Shown piece after piece: positions 26,101 through 57,520 of a stretch of 64,000 nucleotides of DNA (positions are counted from its first letter, which is position 1; the number at the start of each line of letters is the position of its first letter). The stretch lies in the NCBI GenBank assembly GCA_035221665.1, contig CM069140.1, forward strand, positions 68,882,001 to 68,946,000, given 5' to 3'. Origin of the DNA: Okamejei kenojei (lineage: Eukaryota). The notes under the pieces were generated by a model. The model did not search any database. It saw only the letters and a program-made list of their open reading frames with translations, and was not told where the DNA came from. Made by a program: the position numbers and the translations under genes.

Positions 26101-29100
26101 GCTATGTAATGGAAGAAATAAACATGGAGAATTAAGCTCTTAGGACTGAAACTGTCAATCAGATTTTTCTATTTATAGTTATTCTTTGTTCAGGTGTTTA
26201 TTGAAGACAACTCATCATGCTGGAGTACAAGGTTATATTATACAAAATATTAAAAATCAGATTGATCTAGCATTGAAGGTAAGCATGTTCTTAGGCATAT
26301 AATCTTTCTGTGTAAGTATAGATTTATACCATTGTTGTTACTTTTTATTGATCGAAATGTGCTGTCTCATTTTTGTGGGTTTTGTAAGTAAAAGCCATGG
26401 CTGTTATTTTAGTCAGATATTCCATATTATTTGACATTCCTACTTTGTGAGCTCCATGCAAAGGAATTATTCGGATAACTTTGACATGCAATGCAAGCAT
26501 TAACGGAAATCTTTTTGTATATTTTATAAAACATTTTTTTTGCTATATTGTTCATTTCATAAAGTCTCACATTGTATTTTATTTATTTTTGAAATATGGG
26601 TGATGCTAGAAGGGCCAGAAATTGCTCCACATCTCAAATATCCCTTGAGGAGTGGTGATGAAAGTGCCTTTATGAACTACTGCAACCCTTCTGGTGTAGG
26701 TCTTCCCTTGGTAATGGATTATTGTTGGGTGATACAGTTGGAGAAACATTATTTCATGTGCAATTCAGTAAGATCTTGCCATACATAATTACATCAGATA
26801 GTGCAAAGAGAAAAATAATCAGTGTGCAGAATATAATGCTACAGCTTTACAGGTCCAGAGAAAATGCCGATTTAAAAAAAAAGTGCAAGGGCCGCAATGA
26901 GGTATATTAGGAAAATACTCTTCGTTTATGAGAGGGAATGACTGACCGAGGTATAGGTTTTTAATTCAGTGAGAGTATCTACATAAAGGTTGGCACAGGT
27001 GGTAGAACCGTTGCTTCACAATGCCAGAGACCCAGATTATGTCCTAACCTCGAGTTTGCATGTTATATCCCGTGCCCACGTGGGTTTCCTCCCATATCCC
27101 AAACACGTGCGGGTTGTAGGTTAATTGGCCCTGTGTACATTGCCCCTAAGGTGTAGGGAGTGTTTGCAAAAATGGGATAACAGAGAACTAGTGTGAACAA
27201 GTGATACTGGCATGGACTCGGTCGGTCTAACGGCCTGTTTCTCTAAACTAAAACTTAAACTAAACATATGTGCAACAAAATCACATTATTCTGGAATTTA
27301 CAATTGATTCCAGGACCTCCTGAAGCAGATGAGATTTCAGTGCTGCATCTTCATGGCGATGTTGTTCAACCACTCACTTAAGCTTATGTTGCTTAAGGTT
27401 GAGGTGCTCCAGATGGAAGCCACACGTCTACAACCAATAGTTATGCCAGTGGTTGACCATTTTCCACCTTACTTACAATTCTTTATCTGTTCTTTTCCCC
27501 AACTTTTCATTCTAAAATATCTACCTTTTAGTAAATTTAAACTTGTTTTTGTTTCTAGGTCAGCAATGGAAATACGTGGTTCTCAGGCCAACAACTGGTC
27601 CCTCTTCTTCACTTAGTCCTTTCACTTCCTGAAGGAGCTGAAACAGATTTACTTCAAAACACAGACAGGTAAGTTTCATGCTTGATTTAGTAGAATTAAC
27701 TTTTAGCCATGCAGTAATTGTAATGGGTCAGTGCAGTGTGCTTTGCAGGGATGGGGAGAGAGAAACTTTTCCTTGGATACATGGACCCCGTGAAAATGTA
27801 TTAATGGCTGTGCATTGTACTCTGCTTCCAAAATTCAGTTCCATCCACTTTAGTGAAACCAAGTGTAAAGGGTGGCACTTCAGGAGCACTGAATGCAACA
27901 GACAAGGTTGGAGGAGGTACACATAGAAACATAGAAATTAGGTGCAGGAGTAGGCCATTTGGCCCTTCGAGCCTGCGCTGCTATTCAATATGATCATGGC
28001 TAATCATCCAACTTGGTATCCTGTACCTGCCTTTTCTCCATACCCCCTGATCCCTTTAGCCACATCTAACTCCCTCTTAAATATAGCCAGTGAACTGGCC
28101 TCAACTACCTTCTGTGGCAGAGAATTCCACAGATTCACCACTCTCTGTGTGAAAAATGTTTTTCTCATCTCGGTCCTAAAAGACTTCCCCCTTATCCTTA
28201 AACTATGACCCCCGTGTTTAGGACTTCCCCAACATCGGGTACAATCTTCCTGCATCTAGCCTGTCCAACCCCTTAAGAATTTTTTAAGTTTCTATAAGAT
28301 CCCCCCTCAATCTTCTAAATTCTAGTGAGTACAAGTCGAGTGTATCCAGTCTTTCTTCATATGAAAGTCCTGCCATCCCAGGAATCAGTCTGGTGAACCT
28401 TCTCTGTACTCCCTCTATGGCAAGAATGTCTTTCCTCAGATTAGGAGACCAAATCTGTACACAATACTCCAGGTGTGGGCTCACCATACAACTGCAGCAG
28501 AACGTCCCTGCTCCTATACTCAAATCCTTTTGCTATGAATGCTAACATACCATTCACTTTCTTCACTGCCTGCTGCACCTGCATGCCTACTTTCAATGAC
28601 TGGTGTACCATGACACCCAGGTCTCGTTGCATCTCCCCTTTTCCTAATCGGCCACTGTTCAGATAATATGGTCACATGAAGATCTGTCTCAGCTGGATGG
28701 CTGCTGGGGTCCCTGGAGGGAAGTGAGAGAGGAGGTGTAGGGACAGGTGTTACATCTCCTGTGGTTGCAGGGGAAAGTACTTGGGGAAGAGGTGGTTTGG
28801 ATGGGAAGGGACATGGAAACCAAGGAGTTGCAGAGAGAGTGTAGGAACTCTGCAGATGCTGGTTTAAACCGAAAATAGACACAAAAAGCTGGAGTAACTG
28901 AGCAGGACAGGTAACATCTCTGGAGAGAAGGAATGGGTCTTGACCTGAAACATCACCCATTTCTTCTCTCCAGAGATGCTGTGTGTCCTGCTGAGTTGCA
29001 GAGAGAGTGCTCTACAAAATGCAGAAAGGGGTGGAGACTAGAAGATGCGACTCATTGTGGGATTGTTGAAGGTGGCGGAAATGTCAGAACAATGTGTTTG

Positions 29101-47700: not shown

Positions 47701-50700
47701 TAGACGCTTATACATCCTCTGTTCTGGAGTTTATCAACTCCACCATCCTCAAACGGATTACCACATTCCCGAATCAGAAGCCATGGATGAACAGTGAGGT
47801 CAGGCTATTGCTGAAAGCACGGGGCACTGCTTTCAGGTCAGGCGATGCTCGAGCCTACAGTTCATCCAGGGCTAACCTGAAGAGGGGCATCAAGAAGGCC
47901 GAGCATAGCTACAAGCTTAGGATTGAGGAGCACTTCAACAACAACTCCGCCCACGACGCATGTGGCAAGGCATCCAGGCCATCACGGACTTCAGAGCCAC
48001 CAACACCACCCCCACATCCAGCGACTCATCCTTCCTTGAGGAGCTTAACCACTTTTATGGCCGCTTTGACAGGGGCAACCAAGAGATGGCCATCAAGGCT
48101 ATGCTCCCTGCTGATCACCTGCCCCTCACACTCACCCCCTATGACGTGTATCTAGCACTGAGTAGGATTAATGCACGTAAGGCTGCTGGCCCTGACAGCA
48201 TCCCTGGGTGCGTCCTCAGGACCCGTGCTGCGCAGCTGACAGACGTCTGGACTGACATCTTCAATATGTCACTTGCCCAAGCAGTTGTCCCCACGTGCCT
48301 TAAAACCACCTCCATCATGCCAGTGCCAAAACACTCCAATGCGGCGAGCCTCAACGACTTCCGCCCAGTTGCACTTACTCCCATCATCACCAAGTGCTTC
48401 GAGAGGCTGGTCCTGGCACACCTCAAAGGCTGCCTACCTCCCACACTGGAACCCTATCAGTTTGCCTACCACAGAACAGGAGTACGATGGATGCCATCTC
48501 AACGGCGCTCCACTCCGCCCTCTCCCAACTCGACAACAGAGACACCTACTGTTCATCGACTATAAGTCAGCATTTAACACCATTATCCCCTCAAAACTGA
48601 TCACCAAACTCAGCGATCTGGGCATTAACCCCTCTCTCTGCAACTGGATACTGGACTTCCTGACTAACAGACCACAGTCTGTTAGGTTGGACAACCACAC
48701 CTCTTCAACCCTCACCCTGAACACCGGCGTTCCACAGGGCTGTGTACTGAGCCCCCTCCTCTACTCCCTCTTCACGGTTCTAACACCATCATCAAGTATG
48801 CAGATGATACAATGGTGATTGACCTCATCAGCGACAACGATGAGTCGGCCTATAGGGAGGAGGTTCAGCTCATAGCAGCATAGTGCGCTGACAACAACCT
48901 GGCCCTTAACTCCAAGAAGACCAAGGAGCTCATTGTGGACTATAGAAGGTCTAGGGGCTGCATGCACACCCCCATCCATATTAACGGGACGGAGGTGGAA
49001 CGCGTTTCCAGTTTCAGGGGGTCAACATCTCTGATGACCTCCCTTGGACCCACAATACCTCTACACTGATCAAGAAGGCTCACCAGCGTCTCATCTTCCT
49101 GAGGAGACTAAAGAAGGTCCATCTGTCTCCTCAGATTCTGGTGAACTTCTACCGCTGCACCATCAACAGCATCCTTACCAACTGTATCACAGTATGGTAT
49201 GGCAACTGCTCTGTGTCTGACCGGAAAGCACTGCAGAGGGTGGTGAAAACTGCCCAACGCATCACCGGTTCCTCACTCTCCTCCATTGAGACTGTCCAAA
49301 GCAAGCGATGTCTGCGAAGGGCGCGCAGCACCGTCAAGGACTGCTCTCACCCCAGCCACAGACTGTTTACCCTCCTCCCATCCGGGAGGCGCTACAGGTC
49401 CCTCCGTTGCCGGCCCAGCAGGTTCAGCCAGGTTGTTGTCAGCTTCTTCCCTGCGGCTGTTACAATACTTAACTCTGCGCCTCGGTGATTGCCAGTCGGA
49501 CACTCCTTCCCCCAGTATAATTGCAAAACTGTTTGTATATATATATATATTTTACCGTTCATTATTCTAAGTTCGCTCTTCTGGGGAGATGCTAACTGCA
49601 TTTCATTGCCTCTGTACTGTACACTGCACAATGACAATTAAAGATTGAATTGAATTGAAAAAAAAAGCACTTAAGGATCCTCACAGAGACTCTGAATTTC
49701 CTCAGCTGCCTGAGGTGGTAAAGGTGCTGCCTTGCCTTACTCACCAGAACGGCAGTGTGTGTTGTCCATGTCAGATCCTCTGAGATATGGACTCCAGGTA
49801 TTTAAAGCAGCTCACCCTATCCACAGTAGTCCCATTTATCTCCAGTGGCGTGTACGTCCTCGGATGTTGTGCCCTTCTAAAGTCCACAATCAGCTCCTTT
49901 GTTTTTGGGACATTCAAGAGGAGGCTGTTGTCGTGACACCAGAGTGCCAGATCAGCCACCTCCTCCCGGTTGGCCTTCTCATTGTTATGGGAGATCAGGC
50001 CCACCACCAGTATCATCAGCAAACTTGATGATGGAGTTGGAGCTGAACCTGGCCACACAGTCATGTGTGTACAGGGAGTACAGTAGGGGTCTAAGGACGC
50101 AATCCTGGGTGGATCCTGTGTTCAGGGTGAGGGGATGGATGTATGTCTCCCCATTTGACCACCTAGGGCCTGGCAGTGAGAAAGTCCAGGACCCAGGCAC
50201 ACAGGGGAGTGTTAAGCCCCAGTTTCAGCAGCTTTTCAGCCAGTCTGGTGGGAACTACCATATTGAAAGCTGAGCTGAAGTCAATGAACAGCATCCTCAC
50301 AGAGCCCCGCTTGTGAGATTGGAATCACTTACAACTCATATCAGTAGCCGTTTACCTCCTCTTAAGGACATTAATGAATCAGATTTATTATGGCAATCCA
50401 GTGTTTTTGCTATTATTACTTATAGCTTCTTTAGATTTACCTACTTAAATTTAACCATAGCTACGTAACGTACGCACGTGTTTGAAAAAGACCTCTGGAT
50501 ACAAGTGCAGTCATGTAATGACAATGCCATCAGACTCGCAACTCAGCACGTTTCATAGTATTCTCTTGCTTGCATCAAAACAATCTTTTATAGAGATATT
50601 TTTGTTTGCATGGGCACGATTTTGATTACAAGATAAAGCCAATGATTAAGTTATGATCAGGTATTCAACACTCCTTTTGAATTCTAGGTATTAATTAAAT

Positions 50701-53700
50701 CCTAATGTTTACAATTAATAGAACAGACTGCATAAAAGGATGAACTACGCTATAATTTTTGCTTGAAGTATTGTAAAAAATTCCAAATTGTTGCAAAGTG
50801 GTTGAATGTAGCAAAATCAGAGTAATAGTGGAAAATAATTTTACTTGATTAATGCATTTTCTATTGTAGCTACATAATAAAACAATTATATACTACTAGT
50901 TTAATTAATTTTACCAGAAAGTGGGAAGATGATTGATCCAGTTACTACTGAGTCAGAGAATCTAATTCGCTGGTGCTCTCTTGACAAAGACAAAATTGTA
51001 TCATGACGCTGGAAAAATGTGAAAAGCAAAATACATTTAGGTAAAACCCAAAACAACACTGAAAGAATGACTAAATATAAACAAATATCCAAAGGTTAAT
51101 TAAGTTTACTGTAACAATACACAAAATAATTTCCTGTAATTGTTAGATTTATCAAATATTTACTGAAAATTATATGAAAAAGTTCAGTTAAAATATTGAA
51201 GATGCAAGAGGTTGAAAATACTAGAACCTGGAGCAAAAGAAAAAAACTGCCAGAGGAATTCTGTTACAGGATTTTGACCTGAAATGTGGATCATCACTTT
51301 GCTTCCACGGACACTGCTTGGCCTGATAAATTCCTCCAGCAGTTTGTAGAAACAAGGAACTGCAGATGCTCTCTTACAAAAAAAAAGGCAAAATCAGATC
51401 AGGTAGCATCTGCAGAAAATGGATAGGTGATACATCAGGTCTGGATCCTTCCTCAGGCAGAGTCTAAAAAAGGATCCCGGTTGGAAGTGCCACCTCTCCA
51501 TGTTCTTCAGAGATGCTGCCTGACTTGTTTCTCCAAAATATTCCAAATTGAATTTAAACTGGAGGTGACTGCTTCTGTTACTCCAGCACTTTGTGTCCAC
51601 CAGCAGGTTGTTTTATGCACCAGCCAATATATTGTGGGAAGACCAAAAGCTTACATCTATTTTTTAGATGAACAATATATTTGAACAGTGTAGCACACAA
51701 AACAACAAGACGAGTCTGATGTTATTGGAAAAATTGGTCCAACTTCGATTCATTCACATAATTATGGTGCTACTTGGTTGTATTTTCTTTGTAAATTAAT
51801 TTAAACCTGAAATCTGGTTATATTTTTCTTCACAAGTTAACAGCATTCAGTTGCGATTCAGTTTTTTTATAGTTTACCGTAAATTATATTTTTATACTTG
51901 TTGGCCAGCAAAGCAAATACGCTAAAACCCAAGCCCCTTGGATTTGGGACCCCCACAGTCCACTTAAGATCATCACCAGATTGCTTAGGTAGTGTTGGAA
52001 TTATCTAATGGAACACCGTGCAAACTGTTTCAATAATACAGCATGGAAACTGGCCCTTCAGCACGCAGTCCATGCAGATCATCCGTTCACTCTTTCTCAT
52101 CCACTCCCTGACCATCAGGGGCAATTTACAGCGGCCAATTGACGTACAAATCTGCACGTTTTTGGGATGAAGGAGGAATCTGGAGCAGCCAGAGAAAACC
52201 AAGGCAGTCACAATCTCCATACAGACAGCACCCGTAGTCAGGATCGAACCCGAGTCTCTGGCGCTGTAAGGCCACTGCACTGTTGATAACCTCTTTTAAG
52301 GTTAATAAAGTGGCCAGAGAGAAGGTGTGTGTTTGGCGGACAGCATGCCCTGGGTTCCAGGCAGCAGAAGCTCATACACTCGTGTGTAAGAAGGAACTGC
52401 AGATGCTGGTTTAAACTGAAGATAGACACAAAAAGCTGGAGTAAGTTTCCTTCTCCGTCTCTCTCTATCCCTCCCCCATTCAAGTCGCATTCTCTCACTT
52501 CAGGTAGCCCCGGCTTTCCTCTCTTTCTATCTCTCTCCCACCCAAGTCGCACTAGCTTCTCGTTTTCACCCTACAAACATTAACAATGGCCTGTTTCCTT
52601 TATCATCGTTACCTTTCGGCATATCTTTCATTAATTGTTCTTTATCACAGTACATCATCATCTATATCTCTCGTTTCCCTTATCCCTAATCAGTCTGAAG
52701 GGTCTCGACCCGAAACATCACCCATTCTTTCTCTCCAGAGATGCTGCCTGTCCCGCTGAGCTTTCTGGGTCTCTCATCAGACTCATCTTGTCGTTTTCTG
52801 TGCTAGTTTTCAAATATACTGTATATTCCAGCATTGTGTGTCTATCTTCGGTATAAACCAGCATCTGCAGTTCCTTCCTACACTCAGTTTATAAGCAATA
52901 GTTCTTCACAATATTCTGGCTCATGTCATGTGCAGGAAGAAACTGCAGATGCTGGTTTAAACCGAAGATAGACACAAAAAGCTTGATAGGGGACGATCAG
53001 CCATGATCACAATGAATGTGAATAATAAGTCAATAAGTCTAGCAAACTTCGCTCCTTAGATGCTGCTGCACCCGCTGAGTTTCTCCAGCTTTTTGTGTAA
53101 CCCTAGCAAACTTAAGTGTTGTTTTGGGTTTTACCTAAATGTATTTTGCTTTTCACATTCATGATACAATTTTGTCTTTGTGCTGGCTCGAAGGGCCAAA
53201 TGGCCTCCTCCTGCACCTACGTTTCTAAACTCAGCGGGCGAGGCAGCATCTCTGGAGAGGAGGAGTGGGAGAGGCTGCGGATCGAGATCCTTCTTCAGAC
53301 TGAGAGTCAGGGGGAAGAGTAAACGAGAGATATAGACGGTGATATCTGGAGAGAAGGTACACAAAAGTGCTGGAGAAACTCAGCGGGTGCAGCAACAACT
53401 ATGGAGCGAGGGAAATAAACAACGTTTCGGGCCGAAACCCCTCTTCAGATATCTGGAGAGATATGGAATAAATTAATTAAAGATATGCATAAAAACTCAA
53501 AACGGCTGAAAAGGACACAAAGTGCTGGAGTTAGTCAGCAGGTCTGCGGCGATCTAGCGGGATAGGAGGCCGCCTGTCCACAGCAAAGATCCTATAGCTA
53601 TAATCCACAGCACCCTGTCTGGGCGGTGGCACCGGGCGCCGCCGCCGCCGCCATTCGGCCTCCGCGCTCCCTCCCACCTGCAGGGCGGCGCTGACGATGG

Positions 53701-53719: not shown

Positions 53720-53980
53720 GACACCGGCCAGCATCCCGACCTCACGCCCCATGTACGGGCCCCGCCCACCGTACAATGCCACGCCCACTTTACGAGGCCC
53801 CGCCCATCGTACAAGCCCCGCCCATCGTACACGTTCCGCCCACTGTACACGGCCCCGCCCCATGTATGGGCCCCGCCCACCGTACAATGCCACGCCCACT
53901 GCACGAGGCCCCGCTCGCTGCACGAGGCCCCGCCCGCTGCACGAGGCCCCGCCCACTGTATAAGGTCCCGCCCCCATGAG
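53540..53980 (-). promoter_or_regulatory. CpG island / putative C1orf146 promoter with tandem GC boxes
   Basis: CpG-rich island spanning exon 1; about 12 CCCCGCCC/CCACGCCC-like motifs at ~19-20 bp spacing in 53745-53975. Confidence 0.7.
53678..53719 (-). CDS. C1orf146: C1orf146 first coding exon ([14 protein letters not shown]); in-frame upstream ATGs at 53734 and 53752 are alternatives
   Basis: gtcATGG Kozak context; CAG|gtggga donor with phase 0 matching the next exon; AIVSAALQ resembles human IIISSSLK; lies in a CpG island. Confidence 0.75.
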
Positions 53981-53994
53981 AACAAATAGTAATT

Positions 53995-54160
53995 AAGTCA
54001 TTTTTATTTATATAGCACTTTTAAATCAACTCACGTTGAAGCCAAAGTGCTATACAGAGATTAAAAAAAATAGTTTCATATAGTTTTATAGTTTCAAAAA
54101 TCCATATAAAATTAAAAAAAAGAAAAATAAAGACACAATACACTATAGGATTCAACATTT
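53995..54160 (-). mobile_element. L2-like LINE/SINE 3' end
   Basis: TTTATTTATATAGCACTTT...CAAAGTGCTATACA stem-loop signature. Confidence 0.55.
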
Positions 54161-55585
54161 GAAAGCAAATAGAACTGAGGTTGCTCATGGTCCCAAAGGC
54201 ACACTCACTGATATTTAAGTCACTTAATCCTTCCCAATTTCAAACATTGTCCTTCCAAAAAGAAGAAAAATAAAGACACAATACACTATAGGATTCAACA
54301 TGAACGCCCACCCAACAAATAGTACAATTGCAATTTGCATTAATCAATTAAACATGCTGGTCAAATTAGATACACATAGATTTAAAAAAAAACTTGTGCC
54401 TCTGATGTAGAAAAGCAATCTTCAATTTTAATTTTTGGTAAAACGACTCAAGTCACCTGTGAAGTGTGCAAATTAATGTCCATTGATCTTGGATGAGATT
54501 GTCAGAGGCCAGTCTTGTAACAGGAGTAAGAAAAGCGCAAAACATATTTTTTTTAAAAGCTGGTGTTTCTCCAGAAAATAACTGGCTGACATTTTCTCCC
54601 AACAATGAGCAAAGTAAATGCAAATCCATTGCCATGCTTCTCCAATTAAAAAAAGCAAGGTACTTGTGTGAGGGTGATAAAATGAATTTTAGCTTTTATA
54701 CAAATAGAATTTATGTTTAATTTCAGATGGTATTTATTTCACCTGTTACTTAATTTCCCATTTATTTGAAGTAGAATATAAATGTATTGTGAAAATTGGA
54801 AAAAATGAAATAAAATAACATCCACACAGAAGATGGAAACCATGAAAGTCCTATCGAACTTATTTCCACATACCTCGACTCCATCCTACCTCCCCGGTCA
54901 AATCTCTCCCTACCTATGTCCAAGACACCTCACACGCTCTTCGTCTCCTCCCTGACTTCTTTTTTCCAGGCCCCCATTACCTCATCTTCACCATGAATGT
55001 CCAGTCACTCTACACCTACATCCTCATCATGAGGGTCTCAAAGTCCTCCGTTTCTTCCTCGACCGCAGAACCAACCAATCCCCGTCTACAAATACTCTCT
55101 TTTGCCTAGCAGTGCTGGTCCTTACCCTCAACAACTTTTCCTTTGACTCCTTCGATTTTCTCCAAATCCAAGGCGTAGCTATGGGCACACGCATGGGCCC
55201 CAGCTATTCCTGCCTCTTTGTAGGGTACGTCGAACAATCCTTGTTCGAGGCGTACCATGGCTCTATCCCCAAACTCTACCTCCACTACATTGATGACTGC
55301 ATTGGTGCTACCTCCTGCACCCATGCAGAACTCACTGACTTCATCCATTTCACCACTAACTTCCATGCGACACTCAAATTCACCTGGACCATTTCCGACA
55401 TCTCCCTTCCATTTCTAGACCTCTATCTCCACCGCAGGTAACAGACTACTGACTGACATCTACTATAAACCCATCGACTCCCATGGCTATCTGGACTACA
55501 ATTCTTCCCACCCTGCTTCCTGTAAGGACTCCATCGCCTATTCCCAATTCCTCTGTTTACGTCGCATCTGCACCCAGGACGAGGT

Positions 55586-56717: not shown

Positions 56718-57520
56718 GGGTTACACAAAAAGCTGGAGAAACTCAGCGGGTGCAGCAGCATCTAAGGAGCGAAGGAGATAGGCGACGTTTCGGGTCGAGA
56801 CCCTTCTTCAGACTGGTCAGGGATCAGGGAAACGAGAGATATAGACGGTGATGTGGAGAGATGCCAGATGCCAGATGATCAACCTCATCTACTGCATCCG
56901 CTGCTCCAGATGCCAGATGATCTATTTCCGTGAGACCAAGCGGAGGCTTGGCGATCGTTTCGCCGAACACCTCCGCTCGGTCCGCAAAAACCAACCCGAC
57001 CTCCCGGTCGCTCAGCACTTCAACTCCCCCTCCCATTCCGTATCCGACCTCTCGGTCCTGGGCCTCCTCCATGGCCAGATACCGCAAGTTGGAGGAACAG
57101 CACCTCATATTCCGCTTGGGGAGTCTGCATCCTTTGGGCTTGAACATTGAATTTTCTCAATTCTGTTAATCCTTGCTGTCTCCTCCCCTTCCCACCTCTC
57201 CCTCAGCCCTCGGGCCCTGGCATTCCCTCTATCTCTATCTCCCTCCCCCACCCTAGTCGCACTAGCTTCTCATTTTCACACCACAAACAGCTTACAATGG
57301 CTTGTTCCCTTTATCATCGATAATTTTTTGCGTATCTTTCACTCTCCACATCACCGTCTATATCTCTCGTTTCCCTGATCCCTGACCAGTCTGAAGAAGG
57401 GTCTCGACCCGAAACGTCGCCTATCTCCTTCGCTCCTTAGATGCTGCTGCACCCGCAGAGTTTCTCCAGCTTTTTGTGTAACCCTCGATTCTCCAGCATC
57501 TGCAGTTTCTTCGTTAACAC
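56718..57520. mobile_element. Short Penelope insertion with inverted pLTR, between Gypsy gag and protease
   Basis: 16-bp TSD TGAAGAACTC[T/C]CTCTG (56702-56717, 57521-57536); hammerhead-like cores at 56784-56811 (-) and 57391-57418 (+). Confidence 0.9.

Follow-up and report, generated by a model that had tools for sequence, protein, structure and literature searches.

The 64,000-nt stretch of Okamejei kenojei DNA analysed here (the window, to which all positions refer) carries on its minus strand the gene SPO16, whose first intron contains an inverted copy of the acceptor region of exon 2 (Table 1). A family search recovers four SPO16 exon blocks, and the exon 1 peptide agrees with the Carcharodon protein at 13 of its 14 residues, which assigns the insert to intron 1. 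In exon 3, identity to the Leucoraja erinacea protein amounts to 92%. Exon 2 has the 94 nt ascribed to it in an earlier sequence-only reading, and its skipping is computed to shift the frame, as that reading had held, with translation ending after 20 codons. An inverted tblastn match in the last part of exon 4 did not correspond to a long DNA palindrome. Directly upstream of the start codon lies a GC-rich minisatellite with units of about 19 nt (window 53745-53978), and a direct local duplication of 45 nt, 98% identical, is also present upstream of SPO16 (window 54114-54158 / 54257-54301). Far from the insert, window positions 26171-26284 on the plus strand match the Ybp2/glomulin family weakly and below the cutoff (E = 0.1), in line with a convergent GLMN neighbour as in human. 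SPO16 is expressed in the mouse germline. In mice, loss of Spo16 makes males and females alike sterile, and heterozygotes are fertile (PMC6357729). The sterility of nulls suggests that strong exon-2 skipping would be purged, and the fertility of heterozygotes that skipping in up to about half of the transcripts could be tolerated.

Positions 53115-53181 are the reverse complement of 50984-51006 joined to 51017-51060, identical at 67 of 67 nt, and sequence comparison thus confirms the claim of a perfect inverted copy that lacks a 10-nt splice-site block. The skipped block comprises 8 intronic and 2 exonic nt, and its placement is ambiguous by 1 nt, such that the long arm can reach 45 nt (51016-51060). 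A gap of 2,054 nt (51060 to 53115) separates copy and donor, and the donor includes a candidate branch-point A at 51037, taken from a motif scan only. Both copies belong to one pre-mRNA, as had been proposed, since the insert lies within intron 1 and the donor consists of intron 1 and exon 2 sequence. The concern that the 67-mer might be a multi-copy repeat was checked against the species' own 2.76-Gb genome, where it was found in at least two places (the counts being lower bounds); the two returned were the copy and the donor. The lack of any substitution over 67 nt has a probability of 0.19-0.37 under neutrality at a branch divergence of 1.5-2.5%, and the identity of the arms is compatible with neutrality.

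The insert splits the 3' end of a LINE, whose family has a reverse transcriptase as its upstream frame and which, from its tail, we take to be CR1. The two halves are collinear; 58 sampled copies join both anchors, and 37 of these 58 carry identical 7 letters across the break, 3 of which are missing here. The sequence-only reading was thus right about the split. Between the halves lie 161 nt, of which 67 are templated. The filler has no second place in the genome when up to 2 mismatches in 27 nt are allowed, and genome and local searches found no template for it. The small repeat inside the filler is presumably Penelope-like, and both it and the 11-nt duplication are present where a mini-PLE with its own target-site duplication had been claimed. 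The Penelope label stays presumptive, because an Rfam search gave no hammerhead and only sub-threshold hairpin matches. This repeat matches 56718-56774 at 57 of 57 nt, and another exact copy lies on a different contig of a 1-Mb sample, so that local templating from 56718-56774 is not needed. Around the inverted copy itself the sequence contains neither poly(A) nor a target duplication, 3 nt of target having been lost instead, and the 11-nt duplication flanks the nested repeat only. The inverted match at the left junction reaches 11 nt, a length attained in 3 of 2000 shuffles and reduced to 8 with the intact donor, in a window that was chosen post hoc. Two head-to-head repeat ends (window 52827-52986) form a 57-bp hairpin with a 46-nt loop and sub-threshold miRNA-like Rfam matches.

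Table 1. Features of SPO16 intron 1 and its surroundings (window positions; a dot marks features given without strand)
Feature	Position	Strand	Remarks
SPO16 exon 1, coding part, 14 codons	53719-53678	-	donor GT after 53678; at edge of CpG-rich stretch
SPO16 exon 2, 94 nt	50915-51008	-	Pfam SCRE/SPO16, E = 2e-7
Donor of copy: last 52 nt of intron 1 and first 25 nt of exon 2	50984-51060	-	
10-nt block with acceptor AG	51007-51016	-	missing from organism A's copy; organism D's copy keeps 8 of its nt
Inverted templated copy (44+23 nt)	53115-53181	+	antisense to exon-2 acceptor in pre-mRNA
Left half of split LINE 3' end	52983-53018	+	
Right half of split LINE 3' end	53180-53227	+	53180-53181 are 2-nt microhomology with copy; 3 nt of target lost
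Filler	53019-53049	+	31 nt, with 53114 making 32 nt
Truncated multi-copy repeat, 53 nt	53050-53102	+	inside filler; 11-nt duplication 53039-53049 / 53103-53113
11-nt inverted match to 53152-53162	53012-53022	+	53152-53162 spans the 10-nt deletion junction
Second, older inverted copy, of plain intron 51672-51721	52775-52822	+	42/50 columns (84%); splits another repeat after 52760; 14-nt filler
Arms of repeat-repeat helix	53227-53350 / 52645-52763	.	about 104 bp, -164 kcal/mol; predicted to enclose copy in loop

The copy in reads and in related organisms

Contigs from 8 of 24 runs of organisms A to G were compared, representing A, B, C, D and F; 86-91% of X6, X8, X10 and X15 was covered, and such contigs can show presence, not absence. 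In both organism A samples, contigs end at 51045 and resume at 51031, the pattern expected of a 45-nt exact repeat if the word length were 31, a value that is itself inferred. The second of these samples, X2, differs from the possible source in sample and in study. One of its contigs runs exactly across the left junction (53096-53144) and another across the skip and the right junction (53130-53194), at depths of 18-19 for the insert, 25-34 for the donor and 44 for what the two share. The reads therefore bear out the claim of a real insertion rather than an assembly glitch, as exact contigs cross all three junctions in a second sample of A. The contigs of both A samples show T at 53574 where the window has C, and X2 departs from the window at 52017-52018.

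In organism D, one of three runs (X10) yields a 56-nt contig of depth 17 that is exact over 53159-53194 and has the same exon-2/LINE junction. The 8 letters that precede are those of the donor's AG block and differ from the skip junction of A. This contig is unlikely to be DNA of A, since the D donor contig (depth 13.7) differs from A's upstream. No copy was seen in the contigs of B (X6 unbroken over 50700-51244, X7 with the donor only at depth 3.7), C (X8 unbroken over 50700-51215) or F (X15 with the donor only at depth 35), none of which spans the empty junction itself. The donors of D and F differ from the copy by no letter and that of B by one, and no compensatory substitutions were seen, in a view limited to 31 nt of D's copy. 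The junction common to A and D speaks for the sequence-only reading; against it, B, C and F show no copy in these contigs and the one D contig lacks the AG bulge. As the word overlap with A is higher for B than for D (0.47 vs 0.33, over 66 words), the presence of the copy in A and D but not B is patchy; word-share noise, lineage sorting or loss may be responsible.

The common junction suggests that the insertion predates the split of A and D. Because the D copy keeps the AG at the same junction, the 10-nt loss in A would be later than the insertion, and the apparently precise omission of the splice site is probably secondary, which rests on the one D contig. If 10 nt are deleted at random from the 77 nt, the AG is lost in 13% of cases. 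The idea that the original repair itself made the 10-nt skip, through a double template switch involving the LINE end, is disfavoured by the AG-keeping copy of D and survives only if that copy was later corrected from the donor.

Local duplication and the proposed history of the insert

The SPO16 copy is not the only inverted duplication in this intron. A second one, which with its filler occupies window 52761-52823, scores 59, compared with a best of 33 among 500 control tiles; the two events lie 300 nt apart and within about 1 kb of the CpG-rich gene start. Judged from its sequence, this copy, whose origin is not a splice site, has decayed; a genome search with 51660-51740 returned only itself and left it undetected, and BLAST missed it too.

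Over 1.064 Mb, 9 of the 37 inverted two-copy pairs surveyed are 100-10,000 nt apart, one of them being the SPO16 copy, where 1.8% would be expected (p = 2e-8); 24 of the 57 direct two-copy pairs are local as well. In this survey two-copy status was judged within the sample only, seven inverted pairs no more than 100 nt apart were excluded, and the filter was relaxed after a stricter version (4 local among 14 inverted pairs) had missed the SPO16 copy itself. A split-repeat test was positive for 1 of 8 other local pairs, and it missed the SPO16 copy, which marks the test as insensitive. At about 8 per Mb, local inverted copies would number some 20,000 genome-wide. Vertebrate splice sites number a few hundred thousand, and by rough estimate at least on the order of a hundred local copies would overlap splice sites by chance. 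The survey also contains a 156-nt inverted copy of the same anatomy, 98% identical, that lies 1.05 kb from a unique donor and splits a repeat (6 collinear pairs; locus L005, G000:C10:68960297-68960452 / 68961504-68961656), as well as a cluster spanning less than 3 kb of three related pieces, some inverted and some direct, each 84-88 nt long (L071, G000:C6:30071000-30073952), which are possibly serial local duplications.

The insert is likely a near-neutral, repair-mediated duplication, in which 77 nt were probably copied backwards and the AG block was probably lost only later, with probably little or no effect on splicing. Its history would begin with a germline break in an old LINE remnant within intron 1 of SPO16, where the split, with its 3-nt loss and 2-nt microhomology, is directly visible. 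The right end of the LINE would then have invaded the donor 2.05 kb away, with synthesis running through the 3' splice site and on into intron sequence; some 32 nt of filler would have been added and the ends rejoined by an SDSA- or MMBIR-type process. After this insertion, which appears from the common junction to be older than the A/D split, the A lineage would have deleted the AG block that is seen to be kept in the D contig. A template switch against the left junction may have caused the deletion, since the inverted match there lengthens from 8 to 11 nt. A deletion that lengthens the left-junction inverted match in this way fits quasi-palindrome template switching. The small repeat would have entered the filler later. 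In the pre-mRNA, a repeat helix of earlier formation is predicted to enclose the copy for the most part.

Predicted RNA pairing and alternative readings

The alternative that survives best, itself unlikely, accepts the same origin and proposes that the copy measurably weakens exon-2 splicing, a side effect that would be either free of selection or slightly deleterious, and that the 10-nt loss in A may persist because it frees the AG. It draws on the predicted duplex between copy and donor, which folded alone has -98.2 kcal/mol (-125.6 for the perfect 77 bp) and hides part of the pyrimidine tract together with the candidate branch A at 51037. Obstruction of splice sites by paired regions has been reported (PMC8052449), and half dosage is tolerated in mice (PMC6357729). 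The 44+23 bp duplex claimed in the sequence-only reading is thus strong by itself, but it is excluded in a nested fold by a repeat helix that forms earlier. From exon 1 to exon 2 (2,840 nt), the duplex is absent from the minimum structure and has a probability of 4e-7, because the repeat helix encloses the copy; forcing it costs 7 kcal/mol, which is less than 1% of the total energy and within the error of this nested model without pseudoknots. In a fold of the nascent RNA, the enclosing helix has 104 expected pairs and has closed about 1.6 kb before transcription reaches the acceptor. Pairing of copy and acceptor is thus predicted to be disfavoured, short of being excluded. The dampening reading is further weakened by D, which carries the AG-covering version, and by the 13% of chance 10-nt deletions that would remove the AG anyway.

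It is improbable that a reverse transcriptase acting on unspliced SPO16 pre-mRNA made the copy, a proposal that replaces only the copying step and leaves the functional verdict unchanged. On the strand of the small repeat, both inverted copies in the intron have the sense of the pre-mRNA, and Spo16 is expressed in the mouse germline (PMC6357729). Against this stand the missing poly(A) and target duplication around the copy, the 3-nt target loss, and the 39 of 39 proximal duplications free of retrotransposition marks in a survey of repair-mediated duplications (PMC2671141). Furthermore, local copies in our survey occur in both orientations (9 inverted and 24 direct).

A bolder version of dampening, itself improbable, holds that a perfect 77-nt antisense mask of the first acceptor, produced by chance repair, lowers the dose of SPO16 and that one lineage kept an AG-freeing template-switch deletion. 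If this were true, nature would offer an allelic series for long-range masking of a splice site, with no copy in B, C and F, an AG-covering copy in D and an AG-free one in A. A literature search for an inverted intronic duplicate causing skipping gave no direct case by title or abstract start.

The first reading of the locus, a selected cis switch for exon-2 skipping in which the AG is bulged out on purpose, is very improbable. It had in its favour the identity of 67/67 nt, the common pre-mRNA, the frameshifting exon and a junction common to two organisms. However, its defining bulge is missing from the copy of D, where the AG is kept; the copy was not seen in three of the four related organisms (B, C and F); the identity is compatible with neutrality and no compensatory changes were seen; and conserved complementary regions tend to avoid branch points (PMC8052449). 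Such copies are, moreover, common locally, one without splice-site origin is decaying nearby, and in the nested fold the earlier repeat helix is predicted to exclude the duplex. That an assembly artefact or a multi-copy repeat explains the copy can practically be dismissed, despite the 100% identity of the arms and a neighbourhood dense in repeats, given two places for the 67-mer in the genome search, exact contigs of a second sample across all three junctions and a right junction found in another organism as well, unless the second sample is from the same specimen and the D contig is spurious.

Comparison with known systems

As described in the survey by Pace et al. 2009 (PMC2671141), repair-mediated duplications are inserts of at least 50 bp with a donor at a distance between 50 bp and 5 kb, exactly one other copy and no poly(A/T), and their breakpoints show microhomologies of 2-9, deletions of 1-15 and fillers of 1-68 nt. 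Partial exon/intron donors made up 4 of 824 cases in human, and divergence was in line with neutral rates (PMC2671141). Six of seven such features are found at SPO16 (the split collinear LINE, the size, the single other copy, the donor distance, the breakpoints and the absence of poly(A)), the breakpoints having 2-nt microhomology, a 3-nt deletion and 32 nt of filler when the nested repeat and its duplication are set aside. For the seventh, an empty orthologous site, the contigs of B, C and F show no copy but do not reach across the empty junction. The sequence-only reading is upheld in that the insertion was templated locally and interrupts the 3' end of a LINE. The split transposon remnant with microhomology, deletion and filler corresponds to the commonest class of those duplications (10 of 39; PMC2671141, as above). 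The SPO16 case differs in that it comes from a cartilaginous fish, a group outside that survey, that a repeat later nested in the insert and 10 nt of the copy were probably lost, and that pairing with the donor in pre-mRNA is no topic in the available text of that survey (PMC2671141). It would represent one more repair-mediated duplication, this one from a cartilaginous fish and with a history that can be dated in part, and it cautions that an exact copy lacking only a splice site can reflect later deletion.

Other repair products resemble the insert in part. MMBIR templated insertions (MMB-TI), known as germline variants that may be multi-templated, are likewise inverted copies of nearby DNA with microhomology, which here is present at the right junction only; their search takes templates at most 100 bp away, unlike the 2.05 kb here (PMC8421209). 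With the templated insertions (TINS) of Pol-theta, the insert has in common its AT-richness and the short repeats and inverted matches in its filler, as from aborted rounds of synthesis, whereas TINS are 3-30 bp taken from the flanks of the break, and here 67-77 nt come from 2 kb away, only the 11-nt match fitting (PMC7165422). Unlike retrocopies and LINE-mediated insertions, the copy has no poly(A) tail and no target-site duplication around it.

Should the duplex change how often exon 2 is included, the three natural states in close relatives would open the birth of a long-range splicing structure in an essential meiosis gene to direct testing. The established counterparts of such a structure are PCCRs, conserved complementary regions with a role in splicing, which the SPO16 copy resembles in that it lies in an intron and is complementary to the surroundings of a splice site a few kb away at most. 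PCCRs are conserved, show compensatory changes and tend to avoid branch points (PMC8052449), whereas the SPO16 copy is patchy among relatives, differs in structure between A and D, and covers a candidate branch point.
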